Assembly: GCA_964629655.1 (NCBI GenBank)
Contig: CAZVQU010000001.1
Location: 484,056-548,055, forward strand
Direction of reading: 5' to 3'
Source of the DNA: an uncultured Planctomycetia bacterium
GTDB lineage: Bacteria > Omnitrophota > Gorgyraeia > Duberdicusellales > 4484-171
DNA length: 64,000 nt
Under the pieces are notes generated by a model, which searched no databases, was not told the origin of the DNA, and was given only the letters and a program-made list of their open reading frames with translations. The stretch's first letter is position 1; each line of letters starts with the position of its first letter. Below, piece by piece: positions 1-58,092 of this stretch. Made by a program: the position numbers and the translations under genes.

Positions 1-240
1 GTTCCGCTATGCACTGAAGAGTGCACTATCTCTAAGGATAAGAACTCCTCGTCAGGCAAATCTTCCTTTTTAACTATTCTTTTACCTAATAAATACTGAA
101 TCTTGCCTTTTAGGGTTTTACCAATCAATACCTTATTAAGCTTCTCGACTCCTTGCTTATGAGATGTTCGCTCAATTTCAAGCTTATGAACCTCGAAGGC
201 CTTATCATCAATCGGTAAACTTAAGTCTACTATCTTCATT
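1..240 (-). CDS. Putative cyclase family protein (PF04199-like, kynurenine formamidase-like); only the N-terminal ~80 aa are in the window
   Basis: Minus-strand ATG at 238-240. Translation MKIVDLSLPIDDKAFEVHKLEIERTSHKQG... resembles the N-terminal (I/V)DLSHPI... signature of cyclase/arylformamidase proteins. It lies directly downstream of the ACP gene in the same orientation. Confidence 0.4.
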
Positions 241-257
241 TTATTAACCTTTATGGA

Positions 258-491
258 TTACTGTTTCTTCTTTTCAATTACTCCAACAATTTCATTAAGG
301 GTAGAAAACTTAGTAATCTCATTAGTCTCAATTTTTATACCAAAGTGTTTATTAAAGGTAACTACTAACTCTACCATCTCTGTTGAATCAACACCTATAG
401 AGTCATACAATTTCTGGTCTTCTTTGATCTCGCTTTCTTCTATATCCAAAGTCTTGCTTATAATTCCAAGGACCTCTTCTTTTAAATCCAT
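258..491 (-). CDS. Acyl carrier protein (start at the internal MDLKEE ATG, ~77 aa)
   Basis: Small acidic 4-helix-type sequence. The LYDSIGVDSTEMVELV motif carries the phosphopantetheine Ser in the DS(L/T) position. It sits immediately after the KS/CLF pair. The upstream part of the tracked ORF overlaps the CLF stop, so the internal ATG is preferred. Confidence 0.8.
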   Translation of the reverse strand: MDLKEEVLGIISKTLDIEESEIKEDQKLYDSIGVDSTEMVELVVTFNKHFGIKIETNEITKFSTLNEIVGVIEKKKQ

Positions 492-501
492 AGATACCTC
501 C

Positions 502-1737
502 CTATTCTTTCTCAATAGCCAAAACAACATTTATCCCGCCCCGGCCTCTGGCAATAATCAGGGCTTTATTTATCTTTCTTTGTTTAAGTTTATTTGGTGT
601 GTAATCTAAATCGCAATAAGGATCGCTCATCACCTGGTTAATCGTCGGTATTGCTATTGAGTTTTTCATTGAAAGAAGAGTGACAATTAAATCTAAAGCA
701 CTCTGAGCACCTAATAAATTACCATAGATGCTCTTAGGAGCACTAAGGGTAATATTTTCTATTTCTTTGCCAAATACATTCTTTAAGGCCTTAGTCTCAA
801 GATAATCTCCAACTACAGTCGCCTCGCCATCTAGACAGATATAGTCTATATCTGTCTTATTCCAATCAGCATCCTTTAAGCATTCCTCGATTGCATATTC
901 TAAATCATCTGATTCCGGAGCATATCTTGAATAGTGATAGCCATCAGAGGAAAAGCCTATCCCCCTAATAAATCCGTAAATAGGAACTTCTCTCTTCTTG
1001 GCTTTAGATTCTTTCTCAAGAACCACCATTCCTGAACCCTCACCTAAGACAAAACCATCTCTATCTAAATCATAAGGTTTGTATGCTGTTTTAGGATTAA
1101 GATTGTTTTTTGATAAACTCCCGCAAGTATTTGCGCTCAGCAAAGCATAAGGAGTAATCGGGGCTTCCATCCCACCAGCTAATACAAAATCATTTTTATC
1201 CTGAGCTATTACTTTAGCGCCATACCATAAGCTCAAAGCTGATGAAGCCTTATCGGCAACTATGGTCTTGCTATACCCCTTAAAGCCATAGTATATAGTA
1301 ACCTGACCTTGGGGCGCTGCCGGAAACCAAGCTGAAGCCATATAAGGAGAGATGCCTTCTCTTCCTTCTATATACATATCTCTTAGTTCAGTCTCGGCAA
1401 AGAGCCAGCCACCAATAGCATTACCCATAAACACACCAACTCTATCCTTATCAATTTTCTCTAAATCCATTCCCGAATCCTTTATAGCTTGTTCGCAAGC
1501 AACTAGGGCCATATGAGAAAAAACATCTATCTTCTTAACTAATCTTCCTGAAACATGCGAGTAGTGATCAAGCTCATGGACTTGGCCGGCAATCCGAGAA
1601 GGATAAAGACTAGTGTCAAACCTCTCAATTTCGTCGACAAAAGATTCGCATTTTTTGAGGTTAGCCCAAAAAGTTTCTTTTTTCAATCCACAAGGTGAAA
1701 CTACACCTAGACCGGTTATTGCAACTCTATCACTCAT
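502..1737 (-). CDS. Ketosynthase-like chain-length-factor (KS-beta/CLF-type) protein lacking the catalytic triad
   Basis: Thiolase-fold KS homolog with an N-terminal VAITGLGVVSP. The region that aligns with the KS active-site Cys (TIVADKASSALSLWYGA) has no Cys. Both His motifs are absent (ICLDGEATVVGD and IYGNLLGAQSALD). The stop is 3 nt before the KS start. Confidence 0.75.
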   Translation of the reverse strand: MSDRVAITGLGVVSPCGLKKETFWANLKKCESFVDEIERFDTSLYPSRIAGQVHELDHYSHVSGRLVKKIDVFSHMALVACEQAIKDSGMDLEKIDKDRVGVFMGNAIGGWLFAETELRDMYIEGREGISPYMASAWFPAAPQGQVTIYYGFKGYSKTIVADKASSALSLWYGAKVIAQDKNDFVLAGGMEAPITPYALLSANTCGSLSKNNLNPKTAYKPYDLDRDGFVLGEGSGMVVLEKESKAKKREVPIYGFIRGIGFSSDGYHYSRYAPESDDLEYAIEECLKDADWNKTDIDYICLDGEATVVGDYLETKALKNVFGKEIENITLSAPKSIYGNLLGAQSALDLIVTLLSMKNSIAIPTINQVMSDPYCDLDYTPNKLKQRKINKALIIARGRGGINVVLAIEKE

Positions 1738-1740
1738 TGG

Positions 1741-3012
1741 CTACCTCCACCTCTTAAATACAATAGAAGAATGAATTCCAGAAAACCCACTGCTAGTTTT
1801 AAGTATATATTCCGGTGAAATCTGTCTTTTCTTATTAGGAATATAATCTAGGTCGCACTTAGGATCAGGTTCTTCCTGATTAATGGTTGGCGGAAGATAC
1901 CCTTTCTTAAAAATCATACAACATAATACGCTCTCTACAGCATTAGCAGCTGCTAGGGGATGACCAATCATTGACTTAATCGAACTTATCGGCACCTTAT
2001 AAGCAAAATCTCCTAAAACTTTTTTGTAAGCGTTAGTTTCAAAGGCATCATTCTGCCGGGTAGATGATCCGTGAGCATTTATGTAACCGATATCCTCATT
2101 CTTTATCCCTGAATTCTCTATTGCTTGGCGCATAGAACGAGCCATAGGTTCGCCGTCTTCGGGCAAATCAGTCATATGATAGGCATTGCAACTTGTCCCA
2201 TAGCCGAGGATTTCAGCATAAATATCGGCCCCTCTGGCCTTAGCATGTTCTAATTCCTCTAAAATCAAAATTCCGGCTGCCTCACTAATAACAAAACCAT
2301 TTCGCTTATTATCAAAAGGACGGCTAGCCTTATGAGGTTCATCGTTATTCTTAGCCAAAACGCTTACTACATCAAAAGCTCCAAAGGTAATCGGTGTAAT
2401 TGGTGCTTCAGTTGCTCCAGCAATAACTAGATCTTGTCTTCCCTCTTGAATAAGCTCATAGGCAAAGCCTAAAGAATCGGTTCCGGCAGTACAACCAGTT
2501 GAGACTGTACAATTCATCCCCTTTGCCCCATAAACAGCACCTATCTCAGCGCTGGGAGTATTAAACATAGCCGCATCATAAAGATAGGGACGGCCCTTTC
2601 GGGGATCAATCGGGTTTTTGCCCCAGTCAGTAACTAATAAAAACTCCTCTTCCATAAAACGGGTTCCGCAAATAGCATTTGCTAGGATCACACCGCATCT
2701 GCGCCTGTCTAGTTTATCAAAATCTAGATTGGCGTCTTCTACTGCTCCCTTAGCAGCAGCAATCCCAAATTGAACATACCTATCCATACGTTTATGGTCA
2801 GTTATGCCAAATTTTAAAGGATCGAAATTCAAATCTTGGGAAGCAATCTTTGAAATGAATAAACTTACATCAAAGTTCTCAACCCTTTCAATGCAAGGTT
2901 TACCGTCAACTAGATTGTTATAGAATTCATTCTTTTCTTCTCCGGCCGCAGAGATAACTCCGATTCCAGTAATCACTACTCTCTTCACTTCTCTTTCCTC
3001 CTTAAAATGCAA
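1741..3012 (-). CDS. Beta-ketoacyl-ACP synthase (KAS I/II / KS-alpha-like), catalytically complete
   Basis: Active-site Cys in VSTGCTAGTDSLG, His in NAHGSSTRQND, and the second His in MIGHPLAAANAVES. Start region VVITGIGVISAAG. 423 aa. Confidence 0.85.
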   Translation of the reverse strand: MHFKEEREVKRVVITGIGVISAAGEEKNEFYNNLVDGKPCIERVENFDVSLFISKIASQDLNFDPLKFGITDHKRMDRYVQFGIAAAKGAVEDANLDFDKLDRRRCGVILANAICGTRFMEEEFLLVTDWGKNPIDPRKGRPYLYDAAMFNTPSAEIGAVYGAKGMNCTVSTGCTAGTDSLGFAYELIQEGRQDLVIAGATEAPITPITFGAFDVVSVLAKNNDEPHKASRPFDNKRNGFVISEAAGILILEELEHAKARGADIYAEILGYGTSCNAYHMTDLPEDGEPMARSMRQAIENSGIKNEDIGYINAHGSSTRQNDAFETNAYKKVLGDFAYKVPISSIKSMIGHPLAAANAVESVLCCMIFKKGYLPPTINQEEPDPKCDLDYIPNKKRQISPEYILKTSSGFSGIHSSIVFKRWR

Positions 3013-3021
3013 AAGCTAATC

Positions 3022-3600
3022 TCACTTTCTCGAAACTTTAAAAATAATATTCCCGCCATCGGGACAGGTAACTGTATCGATAGAATTCTGATCGTTCATG
3101 AAGTGAAATTTTGCACCAAAATTTAGGGCAAACAGGGCCGGGAAAGCTGTATGCCAGGCTGCTCCGCAAAACCCAGGAATACACTTTAGGCCTTCGGTTT
3201 CCCACTTATCACCTACTTTATAGTTGTAAAAACACTTACCCTTCGCCTTAACAACTTCAATAACCATTTTTTTCGGATTCGGGCCTTTAAAATCAGGGTC
3301 TTTGCCAACTAGCTCAACCTTACCCTCTTTATTAAAGATCTCAACCTTAAACTCTAACTTCCCCCCGTCAGGACAAGTTACTAACAAAGACCTTTGATTA
3401 TCCATAAAAGGAAATTTTGCTCCAAAACTTAAAGCATAAATTACCGGAAATAATGCATGGGCCAAACCTAAACAAAAGTGTTTAGGTGGATGAGTAAAAT
3501 CCTCTAGAATAAGTTCGTCGCCAGCCTTATAGCCATGATAACAATCTCCATAAACATTAAGCACTGTTAATTTTAATTTTGGGAAAGGTGTTTTAACCAT
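3022..3600 (-). CDS. Tandem duplication of a ~90-aa Cys-containing domain resembling the uncharacterised TIGR04076 family
   Basis: Two internal repeats share GDC(Y/F)..YK.GD, a (H/K).(F)C(L/G)..A....FP block, and TCPDGG.(I/L).FKV. Three Cys per repeat. No other family signature. Confidence 0.45.
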   Translation of the reverse strand: MVKTPFPKLKLTVLNVYGDCYHGYKAGDELILEDFTHPPKHFCLGLAHALFPVIYALSFGAKFPFMDNQRSLLVTCPDGGKLEFKVEIFNKEGKVELVGKDPDFKGPNPKKMVIEVVKAKGKCFYNYKVGDKWETEGLKCIPGFCGAAWHTAFPALFALNFGAKFHFMNDQNSIDTVTCPDGGNIIFKVSRK

Positions 3601-3601
3601 A

Positions 3602-4597
3602 TTACATCTCCATTTCTTTTAATAATTCTCCCCTTTCAAGAAATTTCTTGGACTCCTCTACCCTGTGAACTAGGTCAACTATTTTACTGTTTAGTGGAGA
3701 TTGAAGATTGTTCTCAGAAGCTATTCTCACAATTTCCCCGTTAATATAATCAATCTCCGAGGGCCTACCGCTCTTTATGCTCTGTAATATTGAACCAAAA
3801 AGAGGCTCTTTGCTCAAAGAGGTCATTACTTTTGAAAAAATACCAGAAGCTTCTTCTATGCCCATTGAAACTAGCCCTTCTAATCTGGCTTTGGGGTAAG
3901 TAGGCAAATCGGCTAACTCTATGCCACTACCTTTAGCAACATCAAGGGCTTCTTTGTTTAGCTTTATTGCTAGCTTTGCAAAATTTACATCAGAAAAGGT
4001 CTCTTGCATAGATAAACCTAAAATTGCCGGAATACAATTATTGAGATTGATAAACAGTTTAAGGTATTTAGCCCCTTTTATTTTATCTAGAACTGCTACA
4101 TCAAAAGCAGATTTCAAAAGGCCTTCTACCTCTCTTATATTGACTACTTCTTTATCAAAAATATTGCCTAATATTAAGCTACCTTTAAAATTATGAACGA
4201 TTTTATTCGGTCGATAAAAGGTTGCCCCAAACATCACAATGCCGGTTACAATCTGCCCTTTAGAGAAATACTCACTCAATATATAATCAGCTCTTACTCC
4301 ATTCTGAGTACTAAGAATAGTCGCATCTTTTAAATATTCTAAATTTTCATTTACTAAAACCTCTAGATCGTTTAACTTGCTGGCGAAAATGGCCAAGTCC
4401 ACTCTCTGTTTAAGCTTATTATCAACTCTTACCTTATAGGTATCTTTACCGCTTGGGCCTTCAATCAGCAAGCCATCCTTAAGCAAAGACTCCTTCTGGT
4501 AATCCTTAGCTATACCGAGAACATCAACACTCTTCCCAGAGAGATACCCTAAAAATAATCCGCCAATTGCCCCACAACCTAAGACTGCTACTTTCAT
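3602..4597 (-). CDS. 2-dehydropantoate 2-reductase (ketopantoate reductase, PanE/ApbA) family NAD(P)H-dependent oxidoreductase
   Basis: Rossmann MKVAVLGCGAIGG at the preferred internal start. C-terminal KPR signature GSILQSIKSGRPSEIDYINGEIV. Conserved Lys in GAKYLKLFINL. The tracked ORF extends to 4636, but the ATG at 4595-4597 gives the canonical N-terminus. Confidence 0.8.
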   Translation of the reverse strand: MKVAVLGCGAIGGLFLGYLSGKSVDVLGIAKDYQKESLLKDGLLIEGPSGKDTYKVRVDNKLKQRVDLAIFASKLNDLEVLVNENLEYLKDATILSTQNGVRADYILSEYFSKGQIVTGIVMFGATFYRPNKIVHNFKGSLILGNIFDKEVVNIREVEGLLKSAFDVAVLDKIKGAKYLKLFINLNNCIPAILGLSMQETFSDVNFAKLAIKLNKEALDVAKGSGIELADLPTYPKARLEGLVSMGIEEASGIFSKVMTSLSKEPLFGSILQSIKSGRPSEIDYINGEIVRIASENNLQSPLNSKIVDLVHRVEESKKFLERGELLKEMEM

Positions 4598-4601
4598 TTT
4601 T

Positions 4602-4868
4602 CTACTTCTCTTGGCTAATGTATTGTGAATAATCAATATTTAATTGATTAAGCAGCCTCTGGAGCATATCTTTAAAGGCTGGGGGAACCTCCTGAAAAAA
4701 GGCAACAATTAAATCTTTATCCTCAACCTGTTTAGAATCTCTTGCCTTAGCTAACTCCTCAGACTTCTGCTTAATAAGTTGCTCAGCAATTGTTCTATGG
4801 AATTGCGGTAGATTCTCAACTACTCTATTGAACTTGCTCTTTGTCTCTTGGTTCCAGATAATTTCCAT
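4602..4868 (-). CDS. Small protein with a PCP_red-like domain (protochlorophyllide reductase BchB C-terminal domain family, PF08369-like)
   Basis: Pattern IIW.QE...KFNRVVENLPQFHRTIAEQLIKQKSEELAKAR matches the W..E...(V)..P.F.R...E..A...G layout of PCP_red domains. A strong SD (GAAGGAG) lies 11 nt upstream of the ATG. Confidence 0.4.
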   Translation of the reverse strand: MEIIWNQETKSKFNRVVENLPQFHRTIAEQLIKQKSEELAKARDSKQVEDKDLIVAFFQEVPPAFKDMLQRLLNQLNIDYSQYISQEK

Positions 4869-4886
4869 AATATCTTCCTCTCCTTC

Positions 4887-5621
4887 TTATAATTTATCAA
4901 TAACTGAGAATGCTAAATCAGCCATTTTCATCTCAGCCTCAAAGAATCTATAGTCAGCAAATCCTAATGTCCCGGTAATAAGATTATCGGACACTGCTAA
5001 GACGGCTGCGACTTTTCTTTTGTAGATATTAGCTAGGGTCACGAACGGTGAAGTTACCATATCAACGGCAACCGCACCCTTCTCAATATAAGGATTAACT
5101 ATTTCTTTAGTCTCTCTAAATAAAGCATCAGTTGTCCATACTCCTCCTTGATGCAAGATACCAGCGTTTTTAAAAACATCTTCTATCTTCGATGTCAATT
5201 CGCTGTCTACCTTAGATAGATAATTATCATCTACATAATACTTAGTTGCGCCGTCTCCTCGAATAATATCAGTAGCCAAGATGTAATCTCCAACATTTAT
5301 ATCTTCCCTTAAGGCTCCGCAAGAACCAAGCCTGATTAAAGTGTTGATCCCACCAACACATAAAAACTCAGTAACAAAGGCTGAATCAGGAGCATAAAAT
5401 CCGCCGTTGCCAACAGTCACTTTTTTGCCTTTATAAAACCCTGTCCAGAAAGTATAGCCCAGAAAGGTGAAGTTCTTTACGCAATTCTCTAATTTCTCTA
5501 AGCACATCTTTGCTCTATGCTGCTGGCCGCTAATTAAAGCGATTTCGCCAAAATCGCCATCTTTAAATTGTAAAGAGCCAAGAAGTTCTTTGGGGCTAAG
5601 ATGAATATCTCTTTGCATCAT
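4887..5621 (-). CDS. Purine nucleoside phosphorylase / nucleosidase (PNP_UDP_1 family, DeoD-like)
   Basis: GDFGEIALISGQQHRAK and IRLGSCGAL match the DeoD GDFADVVLMPGDPLRAK and IRVGSCGAV. VAVDMV and VSDNL correspond to the EME and SDH(I) catalytic region. 244 aa. It overlaps the ligase gene by 4 nt. Confidence 0.75.
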   Translation of the reverse strand: MMQRDIHLSPKELLGSLQFKDGDFGEIALISGQQHRAKMCLEKLENCVKNFTFLGYTFWTGFYKGKKVTVGNGGFYAPDSAFVTEFLCVGGINTLIRLGSCGALREDINVGDYILATDIIRGDGATKYYVDDNYLSKVDSELTSKIEDVFKNAGILHQGGVWTTDALFRETKEIVNPYIEKGAVAVDMVTSPFVTLANIYKRKVAAVLAVSDNLITGTLGFADYRFFEAEMKMADLAFSVIDKL

Positions 5622-7126
5622 GATTGATCTCCTGTTTTAAGTTTTCCTTTATCAACCTTCCCGGTTCTATTCTTAGGTAAGTCTTTTACAAATTCAAAGT
5701 GATGTGGAATCTTAAAATGAGCTAAGTGCTCTTTTAGAAAGTCTTTTAACTCCTGCTCACTTAAAGCCTCATCCTCTTTAGAAACTATAAATGCTTTAGG
5801 GACTTCTCCGCGTAAATTATCAGCTACGCCGATAACAGCAACTTCTTTTACCTTAGAATATCTATTTATCTTCTCTTCGACCTCAGCCGAGAAAACTACT
5901 TCACCAGCCACCTTAATCATGTCTCTTTTTCTTCCAACTATATAATGCAAGCCGTCGGAGTCAACTCTGACAATATCCCCGGTCTTAAACCACTTACTTT
6001 CAGTTAGCACCTCTTTAGTCAGACCGGGTTCTTTATAATATTCTCTCATAACCGCTTCGCCCCTGACCCAAAGTTCTCCGTGGAAGCCATTTTCTAACCT
6101 TTTACCAGCTCCATCAACAATTTTTGCCTCGAGATTAAAGTCAAAATAACCAATACTTGATATTTTACTCTCATCGCAAGGAGAAAAAGCATTAGGCGCA
6201 GAGGTTTCGGTCATGCCCCAGCCATTTAAAACTACAGCCTGAGGGCATAATTTGTGGAATCTTTTTAAGAGTATTGGCGATGAAGGTGCGCCAAAAACAA
6301 CTGCATATCTTAACGAAGAAAGGTCAAATTTGTCGTACCCTTTTAAGGAAAGAATAGCCACATACATTGCCGGAACAATGCAGAATATAGTAACTTTATG
6401 TTGTTCTATGTTCCTTAGAAACTCAGAGGGATTAAACCTGCTCATAAGAACAAGTGACGATGAAAAAGTAATCATAAGAAGTATATAGTCTAGCCCGCCA
6501 ACATGCGAGAAAGGAACTCCGCCGCACAAGAAGATATCACCTTCAGATACTCCCAGAAAATGATTAATTGTCTTAGAAGGATTATCAAGGTGTCTATACT
6601 CTAGGCTTACTCCTTTAGGATGACCGGTAGAACCAGAGGTATAAAATACAGCTGCCAAGCTATCTTCCTTATGCTCAAGCGAAGGTTGATCATAACTGCT
6701 CTCTCTTGAAATCACATCCCAAGAAGAAAATTCTCCTTCCCTCTCGGCAAATACAATTATCTCCTTTAAACTTGCACACTCACTCTTAATATTAGCCAAA
6801 TCTATTTTAGAATTGGCAATTAAAACTTTTGCCTGACTATGATTTATAAAATTAATTATCTCATTCTCAGTTAACATAAAATCCAAAGGTACTACTGCTG
6901 CCTCCATACTAAATACACCTAAAAAAGTAAAGATAGCTTCGGGAGTATTGGGTGAGAATATAGCAACTTTATCGCTGCTGTTTACGCCTATCTTAAGAAG
7001 ATAGTTGGCGAGCTTAAATGAAGAGTCCCTAACTTCAGAGAAAGTAATTGCTTTACCCTGAAATAAAATGGCTGATTTTTGAGGATATTTTTCAGCCTGT
7101 TTGGTGAGTAATTCTCTTATATTCAT
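5618..7126 (-). CDS. AMP-dependent synthetase/ligase (fatty-acid or aryl-acid CoA/ACP ligase family)
   Basis: AMP-binding core YTSGSTGHPKGV, GWGMTE, and a C-terminal PKNRTGKVDK-type Lys. First gene of the operon, directly downstream of the promoter. Confidence 0.85.
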   Translation of the reverse strand: MNIRELLTKQAEKYPQKSAILFQGKAITFSEVRDSSFKLANYLLKIGVNSSDKVAIFSPNTPEAIFTFLGVFSMEAAVVPLDFMLTENEIINFINHSQAKVLIANSKIDLANIKSECASLKEIIVFAEREGEFSSWDVISRESSYDQPSLEHKEDSLAAVFYTSGSTGHPKGVSLEYRHLDNPSKTINHFLGVSEGDIFLCGGVPFSHVGGLDYILLMITFSSSLVLMSRFNPSEFLRNIEQHKVTIFCIVPAMYVAILSLKGYDKFDLSSLRYAVVFGAPSSPILLKRFHKLCPQAVVLNGWGMTETSAPNAFSPCDESKISSIGYFDFNLEAKIVDGAGKRLENGFHGELWVRGEAVMREYYKEPGLTKEVLTESKWFKTGDIVRVDSDGLHYIVGRKRDMIKVAGEVVFSAEVEEKINRYSKVKEVAVIGVADNLRGEVPKAFIVSKEDEALSEQELKDFLKEHLAHFKIPHHFEFVKDLPKNRTGKVDKGKLKTGDQS

Positions 7127-7150
7127 CTTTTAAGTAGTCGCGGAATTCAA

Positions 7151-7168
7151 ATAGTAAAATTTTACTAT
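7151..7168. promoter_or_regulatory. Perfect 18-bp palindrome ATAGTAAAATTTTACTAT overlapping the -10 element (candidate operator)
   Basis: The sequence is its own reverse complement. It overlaps the -10 hexamer of the operon promoter. Confidence 0.4.
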
Positions 7169-7186
7169 TTGTAGCAAAATAGTCAA
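7159..7186 (-). promoter_or_regulatory. Sigma70-type promoter of the KS/CLF operon (-35 TTGACT, 16-nt spacer, -10 TAAAAT on the minus strand)
   Basis: Read on the minus strand: TTGACTattttgctacaaatagTAAAAT, ~35 nt upstream of the ligase ATG. Consensus-like hexamers with 16-nt spacing. Confidence 0.45.
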
Positions 7187-7205
7187 GGTTTTTGTATATA
7201 AATTG

Positions 7206-9791: not shown

Positions 9792-11789
9792 TTATCCTTC
9801 CTTATAGCCCATCTTTAAAGACAGATCCAAAAACTCTCCCTTTAAAGGATTATAGCCGTGGTAGGCGAGTAGAAAATAAGCTGTTGAGGCAAGAGAACCG
9901 GTTCTACTTCCCTTGGGAGTCCGCCAACCGTGTCCGGTATCAACAAAAGGACTAGAAGCATAAGGAAGGCAAGGATCTGCCCGGCCGATACGAGAAGGAG
10001 AAGTTATAAGCATTTTCTGCAATTCATTAAAATAAAAAAACGCTTTTTCTAAATATTCTTTAGATTTCTTGGGATTTTTGTCTTTAAAATAATCGGCCAT
10101 AACCTCAAAAGCTAAAATCATCTGAGACGTCCACTCTCCGGATACTACCCCTCCCCGGGGAGCATTTTTAACTTTAGCAAAATCAAAGCCTCTTAATTTA
10201 ACCTCTCCTTTTTTCCGTTTAAATTTTGCGCCAACCTCACAATGTTCAACAGCAAACTTTAGAATTGACTCCGGATTCATCTTCAAAGATAAAAGATCTC
10301 CAGGGCCAAAAGCAGTTATTGACCACGCATAAGTATCAGTAGCTATAGTAGAATCACCTTTACCTCTTTTAACTAAAGACCCGTAATCGGTATAGGAATA
10401 GCGTGAAATCCACCTCTTTACGTTCTCAGCGGTATTCAAATGTTTTTTCTTGCCAGTAACCTCATAAAACAACTTAAAAAAAGCAGAAACATCTAGATTG
10501 TGCTCGGTAGAATACCAAGGCAAATCCGGGCCTCCTCTTACCCCGCCTTCACCATCCATCATTGCCAAGAGGAAATTAGATACTTTCTTAACTATAGGTA
10601 GGTACTTTTTATCACCAGTTTCCTTGGTATAGCAAAGAGCCGCCAAACCCAACCAAGCATTTGGTCCGCTATGAAGCACATACTCAAAGACATCACCTTG
10701 AGTAAAGTAAGCATTGTAAATATCCTGACCTTGGTTTATCTTCTTGAGGTAAAAGTCTAATATTTTCTCAGCTCTAAGTTTATCCCCGGAAATAAGAAAT
10801 ACAATAGCCGCTAAAGACTGATCATAAGTAAAACAAACTCTCTCTAAACTGTTATCCCCTTCATAGCTTAATACCAATCCCCTCCTTAAATCCTGACGGT
10901 TCTTTATCCAACCATACATTCCTTTAATTATCTTCTGGGAAGATTTTACCTCTTCTCTTTGCAGACTTTCAACTGCCTCTTGAATCTCCGAGACTGCGGT
11001 TTTGCTCTCTTTTTCTTTGGTCTTTAAAAAATCATTCTCTCTCCTGAGGCTGGCCAGCTCTAACTCAAGAACAGCAAGTTTCTTCTTAAAACCCAAAGCT
11101 TCTTCTGATGAAGTCGAACTACTATTATTGTTAGCAACCAGGGCATCATATTTGTCCTGCCAGAGAACAACCTCTTTATTGAGTGACTCAATGGCTAGCT
11201 CTAAATTCGATTGTCGCTGTTTAAGAAATTCTTCCTCGCCAAGTCCTTCTTTTAATACTTCCTCAAGAGATGAACGTTTCTCTAGAATACTCACATAATC
11301 ACTTACTAACTTTCTGTTCTTTCTTGCTAAAGAATCCATGCGCCAGAACAAAGAAAGGGAGAAGAAAATAAGCACAGTCATAATCGCACCTATGACAATC
11401 GGTGTCGATTTTTTAACTAGAGCATATCTAAATAGAGAGCTTGCTTCTCTATTGTTAGCTTTTAAAAACTTTAACCCTATTACATAACGGTTAAAATCTT
11501 TTAGTCTTTGTTTTCTAACCCAACTTGCCCGAGCCGTTAAGCACATTGGCGAATGTTTAAAGGGAAGATTTATTTTCAGGAATAGCTGAATATCTTTCTG
11601 TTTTAGGCGCTCAGCAAGCCCCCACCAAAGATCATTCATCAAGAGACAGATACCGCCCTTTCCTATATCGTGGGTAAAGCCCTGAAGCCAAGGCGTAAAT
11701 TTCTTACCATTAGCGTCAAAGACAAAAAACTCAATTGGCAAAACAGTAGAGATTCTTATATACCTTCTCTTGTCGCTTGCTTGTTTCAT
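9792..11789 (-). CDS. PilZ domain / TM helix / coiled-coil / alpha-alpha-toroid-like C-terminal domain protein
   Basis: N-terminal RRYIRIS...DIGKGG PilZ signature. One hydrophobic helix (IVIGAIMTVLIFFSLSLFW). A ~130-aa heptad-rich segment. A C-terminal ~360-aa domain with GGVRGGPD and TDTYAW motifs reminiscent of (alpha/alpha)6 hydrolase/toroid folds. The family is not identified. Confidence 0.55.
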   Translation of the reverse strand: MKQASDKRRYIRISTVLPIEFFVFDANGKKFTPWLQGFTHDIGKGGICLLMNDLWWGLAERLKQKDIQLFLKINLPFKHSPMCLTARASWVRKQRLKDFNRYVIGLKFLKANNREASSLFRYALVKKSTPIVIGAIMTVLIFFSLSLFWRMDSLARKNRKLVSDYVSILEKRSSLEEVLKEGLGEEEFLKQRQSNLELAIESLNKEVVLWQDKYDALVANNNSSSTSSEEALGFKKKLAVLELELASLRRENDFLKTKEKESKTAVSEIQEAVESLQREEVKSSQKIIKGMYGWIKNRQDLRRGLVLSYEGDNSLERVCFTYDQSLAAIVFLISGDKLRAEKILDFYLKKINQGQDIYNAYFTQGDVFEYVLHSGPNAWLGLAALCYTKETGDKKYLPIVKKVSNFLLAMMDGEGGVRGGPDLPWYSTEHNLDVSAFFKLFYEVTGKKKHLNTAENVKRWISRYSYTDYGSLVKRGKGDSTIATDTYAWSITAFGPGDLLSLKMNPESILKFAVEHCEVGAKFKRKKGEVKLRGFDFAKVKNAPRGGVVSGEWTSQMILAFEVMADYFKDKNPKKSKEYLEKAFFYFNELQKMLITSPSRIGRADPCLPYASSPFVDTGHGWRTPKGSRTGSLASTAYFLLAYHGYNPLKGEFLDLSLKMGYKEG

Positions 11790-14149
11790 TTTTTCTTTTC
11801 TAAAATTATTTCTTCACGTAAAAGGTAGAGGGCTCTTTTAAGATATTCCTTAAAATCTTCATAATCTTCTCTTTCTACAAATCTCTTTTTAACTCTGAAT
11901 AGTTGATTAAAAATAACCGAATCGGAGCCTTTCCGATAAGAGACCTCAAGTACAAACCAAGGATTTTCTAAATTAGTAGAGCGCGGTAAGTATTTGACCC
12001 TTAAATTCTTCGGCAAGGTTATGCTTATGTTTGCGCCAATATTATAAATTCCCTCAAAATCAATCGGATATTTCCTATCCTCTTTACTGATCAAAGCATG
12101 ATCAAGGTATACTTGGTCTAAGACCGGCACAATCCTTAAGTCTCTAGCTGGATTAAGAAATTCTTCGGTCTCGAATCTATAGGTAAGCATGGGTTGAATA
12201 TCAAAATCATCAACATCGCTTATCTGATAATCAATCAACTTAGACAATGATGATATCTCCATCATCTTCTGCTGGATTTCTTCCTTTATTATGGCCGGAT
12301 GAGTATACTTTAAATACCAGCGGTAAGAGGACGAGTAGAACCCTTGAGTTGATACTTGTCGCCTAATCGCTGCGCTCTCATCCTCGTTAATCACTATATC
12401 CATCTTATAAGCAAGCTTATTATCTTCTAAGGTATTAATCTTAGCTATGCGCCAAGAATCATCGGTAAATACTAATACTGACCTATCTTGATCAGCAAGA
12501 GGAACATATTCAAAAGCTGTAGTCTCAGCTGTAGGGTCCATAAAAATTAATTCCCCGTCTATCTCAACAGCACAAATAGCATGGTCAAAGATAACAGCCG
12601 GGAAGTCTCCATCCATAGAGTAAGTACTACGAGTAGGTATCAACAACGGGTATCCTTTTAAGCCGGCATGCTTTAGCATCGCCACTAAAAGAATTGCCTG
12701 ATCTTTGCAATCACCATACTTATTCATGAATACTTCATTGGCATAGTGCGGCTCATGGCCACTCTCTCCATACTCTATGGCTACATAGCGAATATTTCTA
12801 GCTACGAATTCATACAACACTTTTGCCTTGTCGTAACCAGCAATAGCATCTTTGGTTAGCTCTCCTACAAAGTCTTTTACTTCTCTGTTTAGCTTAAGTT
12901 TATCTTTGTAGAGAGACCTCCACCACTTATAGATTTCATCCCAGGAAGAAAAACTAGAGACCAAGATCGACGGGTTAATATCGGAGGCATTAGGCATGCT
13001 ATACTCGGGAATAATAGACTTTATTTCATCAAACCGCCAAGAGTATATTTTTTTGCCTTTTCTTTCAATTACCTTAGGTTCAAGGCTAACACCCTCTGCA
13101 TACTCTTTGTTTAAAAACTTAAAATTGATATCTCGATTACTGGGGACAATAAGATCAAACTCACTCTTAAAAACAGGATAGCCTTCACGAAGGCGATAAG
13201 CGAAACTAAAGTCATCTTCATTCATTAACTTGGAAGAACGAATTTTTACCTTATACTCGATAAAAGAACCAACCTCTACTGAAGGCATGGAAACAATAAA
13301 TGCTCGGGAATTGCTGTAGAGAGGGAAATTTAGATATCGACTTACATCACGAATGCTTTCCCCTCCGGCATAGATTACCTTACCATCTTTAGTTATTGTC
13401 CGGGCATATTCTAGCTCTATCTTCTCGTAGGTAGAATCATACCCCATCTCGACCTCAGCTAAACCTTTACCTCTCTCTTGCAGAATTTTCTCTATAACGT
13501 GTACCGTAGATACAGAAGTATTGTCAGGCTTAATTTCAACCTCCTCATCAACCAATAGGTATATTGCCCCCTCATCTTCTAATCTCTTAATAAATTCTTC
13601 AGCTTGCTTAGAAACAGCTACTACTTCTTCGGGAATCCTATCGTCTACCCTGACCTTAATTGATTTTACTCTTTCTAAAGCCTTGGTCTTAAAAGGGGCA
13701 CCCACTTTCTTATATATTTTAAGAGCCTTGGGAAATAAGTTTTTATCCTCCAAAACCTGTCCATAGAGATAGAGGTACTCATTATCTTTGGGAATAGGCT
13801 TTATCTGCTCAAAGATCTCAATAGCGTAATCATAGTCCTTTGCCTTGACCAAAGCTTTTACTAAAATTATCTTTGCCCCTTTATTGTCTACGCTTTCCAG
13901 AATCTCTCTTACCTGTGAATAATCTTTAAAATCATAGTAAAGCTTCGCTAACTTAAGCTTCAGCTCTAAATCATCAGGGTTAAGCTCTAGGAGCTGACGA
14001 TGCTGCGTAACTAACTCCTGATAACGACCTTTAAGCTCTTCTAAACCGATAACACTATCGTCGGAAGGCCCTTTGGAGGTTTGGACGCAACCAAGTGAGC
14101 CAAGAAAAAGTATTATTACTATTAGCTTAGGTAATGATTTTAGAAACAT
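11786..14149 (-). CDS. Lipoprotein with TPR repeats, a DUF3857-like region and a transglutaminase-like cysteine protease domain
   Basis: Lipobox LGSLGCV. N-terminal TPR-like repeats. Transglutaminase core GDCKDQAILLVAMLKHAGL with downstream His/Asp. 4-nt overlap with the PilZ gene. Confidence 0.6.
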   Translation of the reverse strand: MFLKSLPKLIVIILFLGSLGCVQTSKGPSDDSVIGLEELKGRYQELVTQHRQLLELNPDDLELKLKLAKLYYDFKDYSQVREILESVDNKGAKIILVKALVKAKDYDYAIEIFEQIKPIPKDNEYLYLYGQVLEDKNLFPKALKIYKKVGAPFKTKALERVKSIKVRVDDRIPEEVVAVSKQAEEFIKRLEDEGAIYLLVDEEVEIKPDNTSVSTVHVIEKILQERGKGLAEVEMGYDSTYEKIELEYARTITKDGKVIYAGGESIRDVSRYLNFPLYSNSRAFIVSMPSVEVGSFIEYKVKIRSSKLMNEDDFSFAYRLREGYPVFKSEFDLIVPSNRDINFKFLNKEYAEGVSLEPKVIERKGKKIYSWRFDEIKSIIPEYSMPNASDINPSILVSSFSSWDEIYKWWRSLYKDKLKLNREVKDFVGELTKDAIAGYDKAKVLYEFVARNIRYVAIEYGESGHEPHYANEVFMNKYGDCKDQAILLVAMLKHAGLKGYPLLIPTRSTYSMDGDFPAVIFDHAICAVEIDGELIFMDPTAETTAFEYVPLADQDRSVLVFTDDSWRIAKINTLEDNKLAYKMDIVINEDESAAIRRQVSTQGFYSSSYRWYLKYTHPAIIKEEIQQKMMEISSLSKLIDYQISDVDDFDIQPMLTYRFETEEFLNPARDLRIVPVLDQVYLDHALISKEDRKYPIDFEGIYNIGANISITLPKNLRVKYLPRSTNLENPWFVLEVSYRKGSDSVIFNQLFRVKKRFVEREDYEDFKEYLKRALYLLREEIILEKKK

Positions 14150-55468: not shown

Positions 55469-57295
55469 TTATTTTAGTTTAACAATGGGGGAAAATCGAG
55501 GTTTTATGGTTGCCAAAAGACCCTTCACAGAGTTGCCAATATAGACTTTATCAGCACTCCTAAGGTCTTTTAGGTAGAGTATTTTCTCTTTTACTTTTCC
55601 TTCCTTTATGAGATGTTCCCTTAAGACTCCCGGCAAAAGACCGCTTCCAATCGGTGGGGTATAGAATTTTTTATTCTTAAGGATAAAAAGATTAGCTATG
55701 GCCCCCTCAGTGAGTTCTCCTCTTTCATTTAAAAAGATGGTTTCAAAATACCCTTTAGCTAATCCTTTTTTTCTTTCCTTATCATAAAAAGCCCTTTTAG
55801 TTGTTTTATGGTAGAGAAACTTATCTTTAGAGTTTATTCTTCTCTCACTTATTCTTATCTTAATCGGAGCCTTGATCTTTTTTACTGGTTCTTTGGTAAT
55901 GTTAATACTTCCTTGCGAATCTAAAGCTAACCTTACCTTTAAATTCTTCTTTTCACTCAAGATAGATTTTTTTAATTCCTTTTTAATCTCTTTCTCTTTG
56001 TAAGGATAAGAAAAATGCTTAGCTGATTTCTTCAATCTCCTTAAATGTAAATCCAAAAGATAATAGCCTTTACCTTTCTCCCAAAGAATACTCTCAATAA
56101 GGCCTGGCTTTTCTAACCGGTCTTTAAAAAACTTGGCTTTAAGCAGTGCCTCCTCATATTCAGCTTTCGGCTTTGAGTCATAGACTATTCCTCCGCCGAT
56201 TCCCAGCTCTCCTTTATTCTTCTTAATCTGAACCGTTCTTATCGCTACATTAAAGCAACACTTTGCCTTTGGTGAGATATACCCGATTGCTCCGGTATAT
56301 ATTCCCCGAGGTTCTTTCTCTAACTTATTAATTATCTGCATGGTCTTAATCTTTGGTGCTCCGGTCACTGAGCCACAGGGGAAAAGCGAAGAAAATACCT
56401 CTTTTAATGTTAAATTCTTCTTTAGTTTTCCCTCTATGGTTGAAGTCATCTGATAAAGGGTAGGATGTTTTTCAATATTAAAAAGCCTAGGTGCCCGCAC
56501 TAAGCTAGAGACTCTTCCTAGATCATTTCGCAACAGATCGACTATCATCAGATTCTCGGCTCTTACCTTTTTACTCTCTCTTAAATCAGCTTTACTCTGG
56601 GAATCTTCTTCTTCAGTATCTCCTCTTTTAATTGTTCCCTTCATCGGCCGAGCAATGATTTTACTATTATCAATCCTAAAAAATAGCTCCGGGGATAACG
56701 AAAGTATCTTCTCTTCTCGAGTGTTAATCAAAGCTGAATAAGAGGTTGGTTGAGCCTTTCTTAAATCTGAGTACAAACTAACTATATCGCCCTTGAAATC
56801 GAACTTTTCCTTAAAGGTAAAATTAACCTGGTAGCTTAAGCCTTGCTCAAGGTAGCATTTTATTTTTTTTATTTTTCCAGCATACTCTCTTTGACTAATA
56901 TTCGGCCTTATGTTTTTTACTTTGTATGGTGGTTTATCCAAGAGAGAACGGGAACATTTCCGGTTAATCTTTTTCTTATTGCTTATCTCTTTGGGCTTTT
57001 TACAAACCCCGACCCAAGCTAAAGGAGTTTTTCCCTTTAGCCTTAGGCTCCGGTGCGCTCCTTCTAAGAAATACCCAAATTCATAAGAGAAATAACCGGC
57101 AAGCCAATAACCTCTTTTAGAGTACCCTTCTAATTTCCTAAAAAATAGATCTAAACTATCCCCGGGCTTGAAAGTAACGATGTCTTTAAAGTTGGAAAAT
57201 ATAAAAGAAAACCTATCTTCCTGAGTTCTGGATAGGGTCTCAAGAAATATAAAGGGCGGTTTTAAATTATGAAGGTAATTAAGTGGATAGCTCAT
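55469..57295 (-). CDS. Bifunctional aminodeoxychorismate synthase component I / aminodeoxychorismate lyase (PabB-PabC fusion)
   Basis: Chorismate-binding domain (PMKGT.KRG, LMIVDLLRNDL, SVTGAPK-type motifs) fused to a class IV aminotransferase-like C-terminal domain. The internal ATG (MSYPLNY..., ~57295) is preferred because the tracked ORF overlaps mutM by 73 nt. Confidence 0.7.
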   Translation of the reverse strand: MSYPLNYLHNLKPPFIFLETLSRTQEDRFSFIFSNFKDIVTFKPGDSLDLFFRKLEGYSKRGYWLAGYFSYEFGYFLEGAHRSLRLKGKTPLAWVGVCKKPKEISNKKKINRKCSRSLLDKPPYKVKNIRPNISQREYAGKIKKIKCYLEQGLSYQVNFTFKEKFDFKGDIVSLYSDLRKAQPTSYSALINTREEKILSLSPELFFRIDNSKIIARPMKGTIKRGDTEEEDSQSKADLRESKKVRAENLMIVDLLRNDLGRVSSLVRAPRLFNIEKHPTLYQMTSTIEGKLKKNLTLKEVFSSLFPCGSVTGAPKIKTMQIINKLEKEPRGIYTGAIGYISPKAKCCFNVAIRTVQIKKNKGELGIGGGIVYDSKPKAEYEEALLKAKFFKDRLEKPGLIESILWEKGKGYYLLDLHLRRLKKSAKHFSYPYKEKEIKKELKKSILSEKKNLKVRLALDSQGSINITKEPVKKIKAPIKIRISERRINSKDKFLYHKTTKRAFYDKERKKGLAKGYFETIFLNERGELTEGAIANLFILKNKKFYTPPIGSGLLPGVLREHLIKEGKVKEKILYLKDLRSADKVYIGNSVKGLLATIKPRFSPIVKLK

Positions 57296-58092
57296 CGCTG
57301 ACAGTGCTTGCAAAAACAAGTTCCTCTTCCTCCTAAAGAAATCTTCTCCAGGGGTCTTTTGCAACTATAGCAGGTTTTATCTTTTCTCCCGTATACCTTT
57401 AACCTTTTTTCCATTCCGCCCCTGTCTCCTCCTAAATCCCGATAGGTGTCGACTGATGACCCTTTATACTTTATGGCTTCTTTTAACACCGAGACTATTT
57501 TTTCGTAGAGACATTTTATCTCTCTCTCGTTCAAAGAGTCAGAGGGCCTTCTAGGGTCTATCTTAGCTAAGAATAGAGCTTCTTGAGCGTAAATATTTCC
57601 TAACCCGGAGATTAGAGTTTGATCTAGGAGTAAGACTTTTATCTTGGTCTTTTTGGCCATTAAAAGTTCTTTGAATTTAGTTAATCTCATGTCCAAAGCT
57701 TCAGGCCCCAATGTTTTTATAAATTTTAGATCTTCATAGTCCTTACACAGCCTTAATTCTCCTAACACCCGAGAATCCATATAATTTAAGACCTTGCCAT
57801 CGGAGAGATAAAAAACTGCCCGGGCTCTGGGGTCTTCTTCCCCATAAAGAAGCCAACCTGATATTCTTAAATGTATTACTAAAAACTTATCTTCTTTTAA
57901 TTGAATTATGATAAGTTTAGCTCGGCGGCTTACCGCTTTAACTTTTTCACCGATTAAGCCCCTTTTAAAACCGGCAGCCGAGGGTTCTTTAATCAGTGCC
58001 GGTTTAGCTATCTTAAAATTAACAATTTTTTTGTTGGTAATCTTTTCGGCGAGTTCTCTTCTTATTGTCTCAACTTCTGGTAGCTCTGGCAT
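57292..58092 (-). CDS. mutM: Formamidopyrimidine-DNA glycosylase
   Basis: MPELPEVE N-terminus and a C-terminal zinc finger CxxC...CxxC. Confidence 0.9.
   Translation of the reverse strand: MPELPEVETIRRELAEKITNKKIVNFKIAKPALIKEPSAAGFKRGLIGEKVKAVSRRAKLIIIQLKEDKFLVIHLRISGWLLYGEEDPRARAVFYLSDGKVLNYMDSRVLGELRLCKDYEDLKFIKTLGPEALDMRLTKFKELLMAKKTKIKVLLLDQTLISGLGNIYAQEALFLAKIDPRRPSDSLNEREIKCLYEKIVSVLKEAIKYKGSSVDTYRDLGGDRGGMEKRLKVYGRKDKTCYSCKRPLEKISLGGRGTCFCKHCQR

Follow-up and report, generated by a model that had tools for sequence, protein, structure and literature searches.

Type II polyketide synthases (PKSs) are usually seen as dispensable machinery with which actinomycetes make antibiotics and pigments; a Gram-negative type II PKS is that of the Photorhabdus anthraquinone AQ-256, the cluster of which also encodes a CoA ligase. 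A second set of enzymes is that of the fluoroacetate route, comprising the FlB phosphorylase, an isomerase, an aldolase and an aldehyde dehydrogenase. Phosphorylase, isomerase and aldolase chemistry has also been described for the dihydroxyacetone phosphate (DHAP) shunt, which acts on 5'-deoxyadenosine and 5'-methylthioadenosine (MTA) (PMC6079011, PMC12632272). Here we report on a locus in which relatives of both sets of enzymes share one operon. It is located in a 64-kb stretch of DNA (hereafter the window; positions 484,056 to 548,055 of contig CAZVQU010000001.1, assembly GCA_964629655.1) from an uncultured bacterium labelled Planctomycetia and placed by GTDB in the Omnitrophota. Region 1-7190 of the window is the promoter-proximal half of a Candidatus Omnitrophota operon of ~17.5 kb and 17 genes. 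With moderate confidence, we interpret this operon as an uncharacterised type II PKS variant combined with a lipid-linked radical S-adenosylmethionine (SAM)/5'-deoxyadenosine gene set, i.e., as a two-cassette operon that would make an envelope polyketide. The combination of a type II PKS with a cobalamin radical SAM enzyme (rSAM) of the BchE-like kind and a lipid-adapted DHAP-shunt-like route has not been seen before. Our literature searches yielded no description of the cluster, its conservation, operator or cassettes, and polyketide genes go unmentioned in two genome studies that cover the whole phylum. The cluster can, therefore, be regarded as undescribed, as a first-pass annotation of this DNA had supposed; only its pair of a ketosynthase (KS) and chain length factor (CLF) had been catalogued, in a 2023 survey that listed Ca. 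Omnitrophica among 14 phyla with KS-CLF matches, in a largely unexplored non-actinobacterial clade (PMC10132072). The supplement of that catalogue contains no Omnitrophica rows (PMC10132072).

The window holds nine co-directional, tightly packed open reading frames (ORFs) on the minus strand, which span position 7126 down to the window edge (Table 1), as the first-pass annotation had described. Pfam and NCBIfam searches support the nine families it had named, with the reservation that the mini-protein belongs to DUF2621 and that its likeness to PCP_red is weak and seen only in orthologues and fusions. The start of the phosphorylase ORF overlaps the ligase stop by 4 nt, and the gene of the KS partner starts 3 nt downstream of the KS gene. 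The ORF of the ketopantoate-reductase-family oxidoreductase (KPR) is extendable to a TTG at 4636 and that of the acyl carrier protein (ACP) extends to 530, orthologues of the latter being 77-79 aa long. The ninth gene, cut by the window edge, was rightly taken for a PF04199-type cyclase: its ORF is 91% identical to residues 1-79 of a 265-aa protein in a close relative (L051), and its orthologue in another relative (L001) matches PF04199 with an E value of 2e-28.

No public contig turned up when the exact sequence of the partner protein was looked up, and the genes past the window edge were instead read from relatives, namely L001, the complete 1.27-Mb genome CP070684.1 and L051, the closest one. 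In L001 and CP070684.1 the ACP gene is followed by genes for the PF04199 cyclase, a 145-aa SRPBCC protein (Polyketide_cyc2), a major facilitator superfamily (MFS) transporter and a 255-aa short-chain dehydrogenase/reductase (SDR), and then for a 486-aa B12-binding rSAM, an Amidohydro_2 protein, an IF-2B/MtnA-like isomerase, a class II aldolase and an aldehyde dehydrogenase. In L051 these downstream genes are packed as tightly as those of the window, and the operon ends ahead of rlmN. The first-pass annotation had reported no SDR ketoreductase or aromatase, which holds for the window but not for the operon, and had concluded from this that the set differs in kind from an aromatic type II PKS. 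This conclusion is not supported: right behind the point at which the window stops, the operon of the relatives continues with an SRPBCC protein, an SDR and the full PF04199 cyclase, so that a reductase and an aromatase seem to be missing only because the window is cut there.

When each species was represented by a single genome and synteny was mapped by tblastn within flanks of 10 kb, the operon was found in 77 species-level genomes, 53 of which are labelled Omnitrophota or Omnitrophica and the rest of which carry automatic labels of metagenome-assembled genomes (MAGs). Most loci have the identical 17-gene order, and the neighbourhood is strongly conserved among related genomes. Each gene is present in 25-33 of the 33 loci with long flanks, the count for the last gene being limited by the 10-kb flank; the ligase was found in 29, and the KPR and the SDR in 31 each. 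PF04199 and Polyketide_cyc2/Polyketide_cyc genes directly follow the ACP gene in all 33, with the SRPBCC proteins scoring above the Pfam cut-offs. The PKS genes and the 5'-deoxynucleoside genes are, in this common order, interleaved and thus more than adjacent. A divergent clade has another order (ligase, phosphorylase, isomerase, aldolase, dehydrogenase, rSAM, DUF2621, KPR, KS, partner, ACP, cyclase, etc.), in which the DUF2621 gene adjoins that of the rSAM, the phosphorylase gene adjoins those of the MtnA-like isomerase and class II aldolase, and the TIGR04076 gene is absent. A third architecture emerged from a metagenome scan anchored on the aldolase, which carries an SCP2 lipid-binding domain (see below): here six genes (ligase, B12-rSAM, phosphorylase, isomerase, aldolase-SCP2 and dehydrogenase) occur with no PKS genes within 7-10 kb. 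In both such loci scanned for neighbours (L088 and L099), the gene of an MMPL transporter that has a sterol-sensing-like region lies inside or directly after this cassette, as do genes of the LolA-like/DUF1329 and DUF1302 families; a short IF-2B-like fragment ORF of 157-161 aa without a Pfam match also precedes the aldolase gene in these two.

The operon is, therefore, composed of two cassettes, which the window type interleaves. Cassette A holds the ligase, the phosphorylase, the BchE-like B12-rSAM with its DUF2621/PCP_red-like mini-protein, the MtnA-like isomerase, the aldolase-SCP2 and the aldehyde dehydrogenase; it is separable and lipid-associated, since its six genes also stand alone beside lipid exporters. 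Cassette B is the type II PKS, consisting of the KS, its dead partner, the ACP, the PF04199 and SRPBCC cyclases, the MFS transporter, the SDR, an ACMSD/LigW-like amidohydrolase, the KPR and the tandem TIGR04076 protein.

Cys174, His314, Lys346 and His351 of the KS are invariant in 73 orthologues. Its partner, which is 32% identical to it, has Lys163, Asp303, Lys335 and Asn340 at these positions; position 163 is Lys in 43 and Arg in 33 of 76 orthologues, followed by Asp, Lys and Asn. The ACP has an Asp48-Ser49-Thr50 motif that is invariant in 66 orthologues. These residues agree with the first-pass description of a complete KS, a homologue without Cys/His/His and an ACP with a DS(T) serine. The Gln that canonical CLFs such as the Streptomyces reference CLF have at the former Cys position (“KSQ”) was not encountered, and the label CLF-like, given earlier to the partner, is in this respect not borne out, whereas its position in a small phylogenetic tree supports it. 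In this neighbor-joining (NJ) tree (200 bootstraps), all Cys-less partners, 25 proteins that include those of Omnitrophota, the Bacillus one and a Streptomyces CLF, form a single clade (182/200), the Omnitrophota KS groups with a Bacillus plasmid KS (198/200) and with Streptomyces KS-alpha (104/200), and E. coli FabF and FabB fall outside. The support from this tree is moderate, since it is small and of the NJ type only. The solved structures that score best with the KS are AntD (6smo_B, 368 bits) and the actinorhodin KS (1tqy_A, 363 bits), above FabF (352 bits). Of its best plasmid matches, the three that we inspected (Azospirillum, Bacillus and Streptomyces) each lie beside a second KS or CLF gene; in Azospirillum and Streptomyces, the cluster further includes an SRPBCC or aromatase/cyclase together with a reductase of the SDR or FabG type. 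Judged by sequence, the system has most of the features that define a type II PKS, without the canonical Gln.

Partners of this kind are widespread: a search of 1.8 billion representatives returned numerous single-domain relatives in which Arg or Lys takes the place of the cysteine, as well as fused KS-partner proteins. Metagenomic Arg/Lys partners include P0241, P0243, P0250, P0252, P0260, P0273, P0280, P0287, P0289, P0297, P0346 and P0358; several Arg/Lys partners keep one or both His, and one is encoded on a Bacillus plasmid (Table 1). The fused proteins (P0242, P0249, P0265, P0272 and P0275) are 780-870 aa long. Other families with paired KS were also considered. Membership of the cispentacin family is rejected on the NF058662/NF058660 equivalog scores (KS 168 and partner 124 vs. 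a cut-off of 325; ACP 42 vs. 80), and that of the ishigamide and aryl-polyene families is likewise rejected on scores, the latter in agreement with the first-pass annotation.

That annotation had also set the operon apart from housekeeping type II fatty acid synthesis (FASII), and an elongation pair of the FabF/FabB type is indeed hardly conceivable. The KS does pass the broad model PRK07314 “beta-ketoacyl-ACP synthase II” (442 bits vs. a cut-off of 387), but it stays below the FabF equivalog cut-off (TIGR03150, 455 vs. 494; partner 368), its partner has neither the catalytic Cys nor the His, and both fall outside the E. coli FabF/FabB group in the tree. The gene context points the same way: tblastn with E. 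coli FabH, FabD, FabG and AcpP on the 64-kb window gave nothing at E <= 1e-3, in line with the absence of FabH, FabD and FabG noted before, and in the 10-kb flanks of 80 loci there was no match to FabH or FabD and the only match to FabG was the SDR of the cluster. The residue and context data, therefore, already contradict a housekeeping role; the system of KS, dead KS partner and ACP is of the type II PKS type.

Several observations weigh against our interpretation. The partner scores higher with FabF structures (276 bits) than with the actinorhodin CLF (197 bits), and long-branch attraction may be part of the reason why it clusters with CLFs in the NJ tree. The SDR shares no more than 25% identity with the polyketide ketoreductase of the Streptomyces cluster and scores below the FabG cut-offs, the profile match of the SRPBCC protein to the Streptomyces aromatase/cyclase is weak (hhalign probability 38%), and the cluster lacks a malonyl-CoA:ACP transacylase, a phosphopantetheinyl transferase and a thioesterase. 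CP070684.1 has the PKS half without the ligase, phosphorylase, DUF2621 and KPR genes upstream, and simple salvage of 5'-deoxyadenosine would leave the SCP2 domain of the aldolase and the company of ligase and dehydrogenase unexplained. Furthermore, product, chain length and starter cannot be read from the sequence.

Some of these points could also be taken to mean that the KS pair works like a highly reducing type II PKS or a specialised fatty acid synthase, whose acyl chain would be non-aromatic and reduced for the most part, with the “cyclases” being a hydrolase and a dehydratase. The FabF-like scores of the partner fit this, as do the nearest solved structures of the PF04199 protein, which are hydrolases (isatin hydrolase) and weak matches; dehydratases and lipid binders are known among SRPBCC proteins, the operon encodes two reductases (SDR and KPR), and the context of the operon, with SCP2 and, in the variant loci, MMPL, is one of lipids. 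However, no FabZ/FabA-type dehydratase or enoyl reductase occurs among the cluster genes scanned in the window or the relatives, the KS groups with KS-alpha from clusters that carry aromatase/cyclases, and the amidohydrolase resembles aromatic-acid decarboxylases. We consider such a reduced chain very improbable; the product of the operon is probably a lipidic cyclised polyketide.

The operon looks vertically inherited and under purifying selection, like strongly constrained core content and unlike a mobile secondary-metabolite island. KS identity equals or exceeds that of Era in 15 of 16 genome pairs (for the L035 pair, Era is 57%, KS 82% and partner 76% identical); the KS is more conserved than Era and TrmA in nearly all pairs, and the same applies in most cases to the phosphorylase, the TIGR04076 protein and the partner. 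More than 120 cluster representatives of the partner share 70-94% identity with it, and all named ones are Candidatus Omnitrophota. The rest of the window consists of housekeeping genes (GatA/B, RpoD, DnaG, PheT and TsaD) and its base composition is uniform, so that there is no sign of a recent island. The same operon was also encountered in MAGs labelled uncultured Planctomycetia (L004, L007, L011, L012, L051 and others), Methanosarcinales (L008), Deltaproteobacteria (L062, L065) and Victivallales (L056), some of which encode proteins 87-94% identical to those of the window beside the same Era and TrmA neighbours; we take these for probable cases of wrong labelling or bin contamination, not of transfer.

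Ahead of the ligase gene, a consensus scan found the promoter TTGACT-16-TAAAAT at 7186-7159, with the -35 TTGACT at 7181-7186, in a gap of 79 bp; the promoter scan as a whole scores no better than shuffles. The -10 TAAAAT lies within a perfect 16-bp palindrome, TAGTAAAATTTTACTA (7152-7167), which occurs once in the window. An alignment of this gap from 11 loci shows the -35 and TAGTAAAATTTTACTA to be invariant amid variable intergenic DNA, and the promoter that the first-pass annotation had placed here is thus supported by a -35 and -10 that do not change across relatives, while the surrounding DNA is not conserved. Each of 60 fetched loci, covering all three gene orders, has exactly one copy of TAGTAAAATTTTACTA, just upstream of the ligase gene wherever positions were compared, or, in the few loci without a ligase match, upstream of the cluster. 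Because the palindrome is exact, single in each locus and so positioned, the data support one regulated promoter, with TAGTAAAATTTTACTA as its putative operator and an unnamed repressor or activator. There is no regulator gene within the cluster, and an Rfam scan of the window returned three tRNAs only, with no riboswitch ahead of the operon. In many relatives a further AATTTTACTA half-site, degenerate in the window, follows the palindrome. The CP070684.1 locus (L002/L015) keeps the genes from TIGR04076 through the aldolase; the exact palindrome is absent. This genome also has an Aminotran_4 gene inserted after that of the amidohydrolase, and DeoC and Zn-ADH genes after that of the aldolase.

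Table 1. Features of the window and of loci in relatives (coordinates of the window unless a locus is named).
Feature	Coordinates	Strand	Basis
Promoter and overlapping operator	7152-7186	-	consensus scan and alignment of relatives
ANL-family acyl/aryl-CoA (or -ACP) ligase, 502 aa, operon gene 1	5618-7126	-	PF00501 + PF13193
DeoD/MTAP-like nucleoside phosphorylase, 244 aa	4887-5621	-	PF01048; best NCBIfam match DeoD-type
DUF2621/PCP_red-like mini-protein, 88 aa	4602-4868	-	PF11084, E 1.6e-9
KPR, NAD(P)H oxidoreductase	3602-4597	-	PF02558 (ApbA) + PF08546 (ApbA_C)
Tandem TIGR04076 protein, 192 aa, conserved Cys and His	3022-3600	-	two TIGR04076 stretches
Active KS, KS-alpha type	1741-3012	-	PF00109 + PF02801
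Catalytically dead KS partner, CLF-like, Lys/Arg type	502-1737	-	PF00109 + PF02801
ACP, 77 aa from Met at 491	258-491	-	PF00550
PF04199 (DpsY-type) cyclase, first 79 codons, cut by window edge	1-239	-	likeness to L051 orthologue
665-aa protein	9792-11789	-	weak PilZ match of L001 orthologue
787-aa TPR/DUF3857/transglutaminase-like protein	11786-14149	-	
631-aa chorismate-binding enzyme + aminotransferase class IV fusion	55469-57364	-	resembles PabB-PabC
Palindrome TAGTAAAATTTTACTA in relatives	L001 4503-4518; L088 4606-4621		
Aldolase-SCP2	L001 18261-19256; L051 17976-18974; 28 other loci (SCP2 in 29 of the 30)		
PKS-less loci	L088 4744-17789; L099 4749-18169; also L092, L098, L104		
rSAM of ~576 aa ending in a PCP_red/DUF2621-like domain	L043 14788-16515; L047 15316-17052; L052 14651-16384		
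Operon locus of CP070684.1 (L002/L015)	834626-855861		
Arg/Lys partner on Bacillus plasmid	L083 8313-9554		

Turning to cassette A, the ligase matches PRK06187 best among the NCBIfam models (420 bits, below the cut-off of 476), and its nearest solved structures, at ~200 bits, are 4-coumarate, feruloyl and fatty-acyl-CoA ligases, a range too broad to narrow down its substrate; at 1e-60 there is no match. The phosphorylase misses all NCBIfam equivalog cut-offs and has as its nearest solved structure the 5'-methylthioadenosine phosphorylase of Sulfolobus solfataricus (1jds, 100 bits). We propose that it acts as a 5'-deoxyadenosine or 5'-substituted adenosine phosphorylase, which would be step 1 of a DHAP-shunt-like route; support for a futalosine hydrolase (17 bits) or HpnG (39 vs. 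a cut-off of 187) is very weak. Nor does this enzyme stand by itself: it belongs to a phosphorylase/isomerase/aldolase/dehydrogenase set that agrees with known processing of 5'-deoxynucleosides and whose other members lie past the window edge. Of these, the isomerase (in relatives) passes TIGR00524 (206 vs. 186) and misses PRK05720 (251 vs. 271). The FucA-like class II aldolase matches PF00596 in 30 of 30 relatives, with its metal and catalytic residues (Glu75, His94, His96 and His155) invariant, and carries a C-terminal SCP2 domain in 29 of the 30 orthologues (best E 4e-8). We found no literature report of an SCP2 fusion in DHAP-shunt aldolases and, to the best of our knowledge, the Ald2 and DrdA enzymes described so far do not have this domain. 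With the aldolase fused to SCP2, and MMPL and LolA-like exporters in the PKS-less variants, the lipid/nucleoside link that had been suggested earlier is plausible.

The rSAM scores best with BchE (200 bits) and HpnJ (143 bits), far below the family cut-offs (481 and 578, respectively), and since the BchE equivalog TIGR02026 is not reached it can be called BchE-like only. In three genomes it ends in a PCP_red/DUF2621-like domain (Table 1), with a separate DUF2621 gene still present upstream. Because a domain homologous to the mini-protein is thus fused to the rSAM, the mini-protein is probably a partner of this enzyme. Among the other accessory proteins, the KPR passes TIGR00745 (148 bits vs. 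141), and the amidohydrolase, with a His-x-His motif at its N-terminus, has ACMSD, LigW, IDCase and 2,3-dihydroxybenzoate (2,3-DHBA) decarboxylases as nearest solved relatives. The TIGR04076 protein passes its model in two repeats (105.5 bits vs. 33) and is among the most conserved of the operon, with the best 120 database clusters at least 77% identical. Its high conservation, taken with its absence from the rearranged clade, suggests a role that is under strong constraint and can nevertheless be replaced.

The genes present, their catalytic residues, the position in the tree, the conservation, the operator and the separability of the cassettes are observations, whereas every chemical step given below, like the nature of the product, is inferred. 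The ligase would activate a carboxylic acid starter, probably lipophilic, which the KS and its partner would extend on the ACP with malonyl units, using a malonyl transferase and a phosphopantetheinyl transferase encoded elsewhere. The chain would be reduced by the SDR and KPR, folded by the PF04199 and SRPBCC cyclases and relieved of its carboxylate by the amidohydrolase, after which the B12-rSAM with the mini-protein may carry out an oxygen-independent radical tailoring. Its 5'-deoxyadenosyl product would pass through phosphorylase, isomerase, aldolase and dehydrogenase, giving adenine, DHAP and a carboxylic acid. The result would be a hydrophobic cyclised polyketide, most likely destined for the cell envelope and moved by the MFS protein. 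The processing of the 5'-deoxyadenosyl product may represent either the disposal of free 5'-deoxyadenosine or the biosynthetic trimming of an adenosylated lipid, with the ligase loading the trimmed acid; trimming would explain why the aldolase has SCP2 and why a ligase and a dehydrogenase are always present, but has no precedent among B12-rSAMs.

It might be argued that the two cassettes do not cooperate at all, i.e., that PKS and DHAP-shunt-like genes are independent functions that share an operon, the latter serving general salvage of the by-products of radical SAM and polyamine metabolism. The DHAP shunt is widespread as a stand-alone salvage pathway (PMC6079011, PMC12632272), the cassette exists without PKS genes, the phosphorylase gene of CP070684.1 is not beside the PKS, and small genomes often pack unrelated genes into one operon. 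On the other hand, the two sets have stayed together through at least two gene orders and are interleaved in the common one, a single conserved operator precedes the combined operon, and both the aldolase-SCP2 fusion and the constant ligase and B12-rSAM are foreign to known DHAP-shunt loci. Independence of the cassettes, therefore, seems rather improbable to us.

Unlikely as well, though to a somewhat lesser degree, is that cassette A is biosynthetic and not a salvage route. In this case the rSAM or another enzyme would attach the 5'-deoxyadenosyl group of SAM to a lipophilic acceptor, the phosphorylase, isomerase and SCP2-aldolase would trim the ribose to R-CH2-CHO, the dehydrogenase would give R-CH2-COOH, and the ligase would load this acid as PKS starter or, in the PKS-less loci, as a lipid building block. 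Adenosylation as such is familiar, as HpnH adenosylates diploptene and MqnE acts likewise in the futalosine route. All six enzymes and SCP2 would obtain a role in one linear route, whose enzyme order equals that of the fluoroacetate pathway; the cassette is separable, with its six genes together in three gene orders, MMPL, LolA-like and DUF1302 lipid exporters adjoin it when the PKS is absent, 29 of 30 aldolases have the SCP2 domain, and ligase and phosphorylase genes overlap by 4 nt. However, no B12-dependent rSAM is known to adenosylate its substrate, the enzyme in question resembles BchE, HpnJ and HpnR and not HpnH or MqnE, no acceptor can be named, and SCP2 could also bind the final product or serve in assembly. 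Taken one step further, the operon might make a physiologically central envelope or redox lipid of the Omnitrophota by undescribed chemistry, in which the phosphorylase, the MtnA-like isomerase and the SCP2-bearing aldolase cut a lipophilic, SAM-derived 5'-substituted 5'-deoxyadenosine to a two-carbon-extended aldehyde, which is oxidised, adenylated and used as starter of the type II PKS with its Lys/Arg-type partner; an alkyl-aromatic head group resembling a quinone would result once the chain has been cyclised, decarboxylated and tailored by BchE-like radical chemistry without oxygen. We think there is only a small chance that this is so. If true, the ribose of SAM would feed carbon into a polyketide lipid and a type II PKS would serve core and not secondary metabolism.

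The gene order kept in dozens of species, a core that evolves more slowly than Era, an exact operator and the housekeeping setting point to a product that the cells need and not to a weapon used now and then. The surroundings also set the operon apart, since its neighbours are housekeeping genes and its hosts belong to an uncultured phylum whose cells are very small and for the most part anaerobic. The product of this two-cassette type II PKS operon could prove to be a new membrane lipid or redox carrier, or a biomarker for Omnitrophota, and its elucidation would reveal the way in which aromatic polyketides can be modified in the absence of oxygen. Partners of the Lys/Arg type, known from Bacillus and from numerous metagenomic sequences as well, are relevant to the debate on what the glutamine of the CLF does.

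Elsewhere in the window, the genes for two proteins of 665 and 787 aa (9792-14149) lie upstream of an Era-nitroreductase-TrmA block that precedes the operon, a neighbourhood common to several relatives, and a PabB-PabC-like fusion is encoded farther away (Table 1).

Compared with aromatic type II PKSs (actinorhodin KS/CLF, 1TQY; Streptomyces lavendulae pSA3239; Azospirillum brasilense Sp7 p3), the operon shares an adjacent KS and Cys-less partner, a discrete ACP, an SRPBCC cyclase, an SDR and a second cyclase. Its KS is 44% identical to a Streptomyces KS-alpha, and its partner has the Asp at the first-His position in common with the Streptomyces CLF (K/R-D-K-N vs. Q-D-K-R) but differs at the former cysteine, where Lys or Arg replaces Gln. 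Unlike these systems, the operon has no oxygenases, its SDR is probably not an ActIII-type orthologue (25% identity), and it adds the KPR, the TIGR04076 protein, the B12-rSAM, the decarboxylase-like amidohydrolase and the 5'-deoxynucleoside cassette; furthermore, it is chromosomal, apparently vertically inherited and better conserved than Era, in a mostly anaerobic phylum of small genomes. The AQ-256 system of Photorhabdus (AntD/AntE/AntF, PDB 6SMO) provides, with AntD (368 bits), the best-scoring solved structure for the KS; we know of no radical SAM, phosphorylase, aldolase-SCP2 or TIGR04076 protein in its cluster. The closest cluster found in a cultured organism is an uncharacterised one on a plasmid of Bacillus bombysepticus (NZ_CP085408.1), whose KS, partner (with Arg at the cysteine position) and PF04199 cyclase are 47, 39 and 44% identical, respectively. 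It differs in having methyltransferases, an FAD oxidoreductase, a cupin and AcpS, in a partner that keeps both His, and in lacking cassette A, the KPR and TIGR04076. With ishigamide Iga11/12, cispentacin AmcF/AmcG and aryl polyene ApeO/ApeC the operon shares a KS heterodimer with an inactive partner and a discrete ACP, next to weak NCBIfam matches to AmcF (168 vs. 325) and AmcB and a score of 213 bits with the Iga11 structure; unlike these highly reducing or non-aromatic systems it has cyclases and no dehydratase/enoyl-reductase set.

Cassette A has its counterparts elsewhere. With BchE, the anaerobic Mg-protoporphyrin IX monomethyl ester cyclase, and HpnJ, the rSAM shares the B12-binding and radical SAM core and, as in BchE, it is accompanied by a PCP_red/DUF2621-like accessory domain; like hopanoid side-chain loci (HpnJ, HpnR, HpnG), its neighbourhood includes a PNP-family enzyme and an MMPL-type transporter, although no tetrapyrrole or hopanoid genes are nearby. 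The families of the DHAP shunt and of 5-deoxyribose salvage (MtnP or MtnN+MtnK, MtnA, Ald2; DrdK/DrdI/DrdA) recur in the operon in the same logical order, with a metal-dependent class II aldolase, and the order of the fluoroacetate route, dehydrogenase included, is also the same. The operon differs in the C-terminal SCP2 domain of its aldolase and has no fluorinase or chlorinase; its set is always accompanied by an ANL ligase and by a B12-rSAM, shares one operator with them, and lies inside a PKS operon or beside MMPL and LolA-like lipid exporters.

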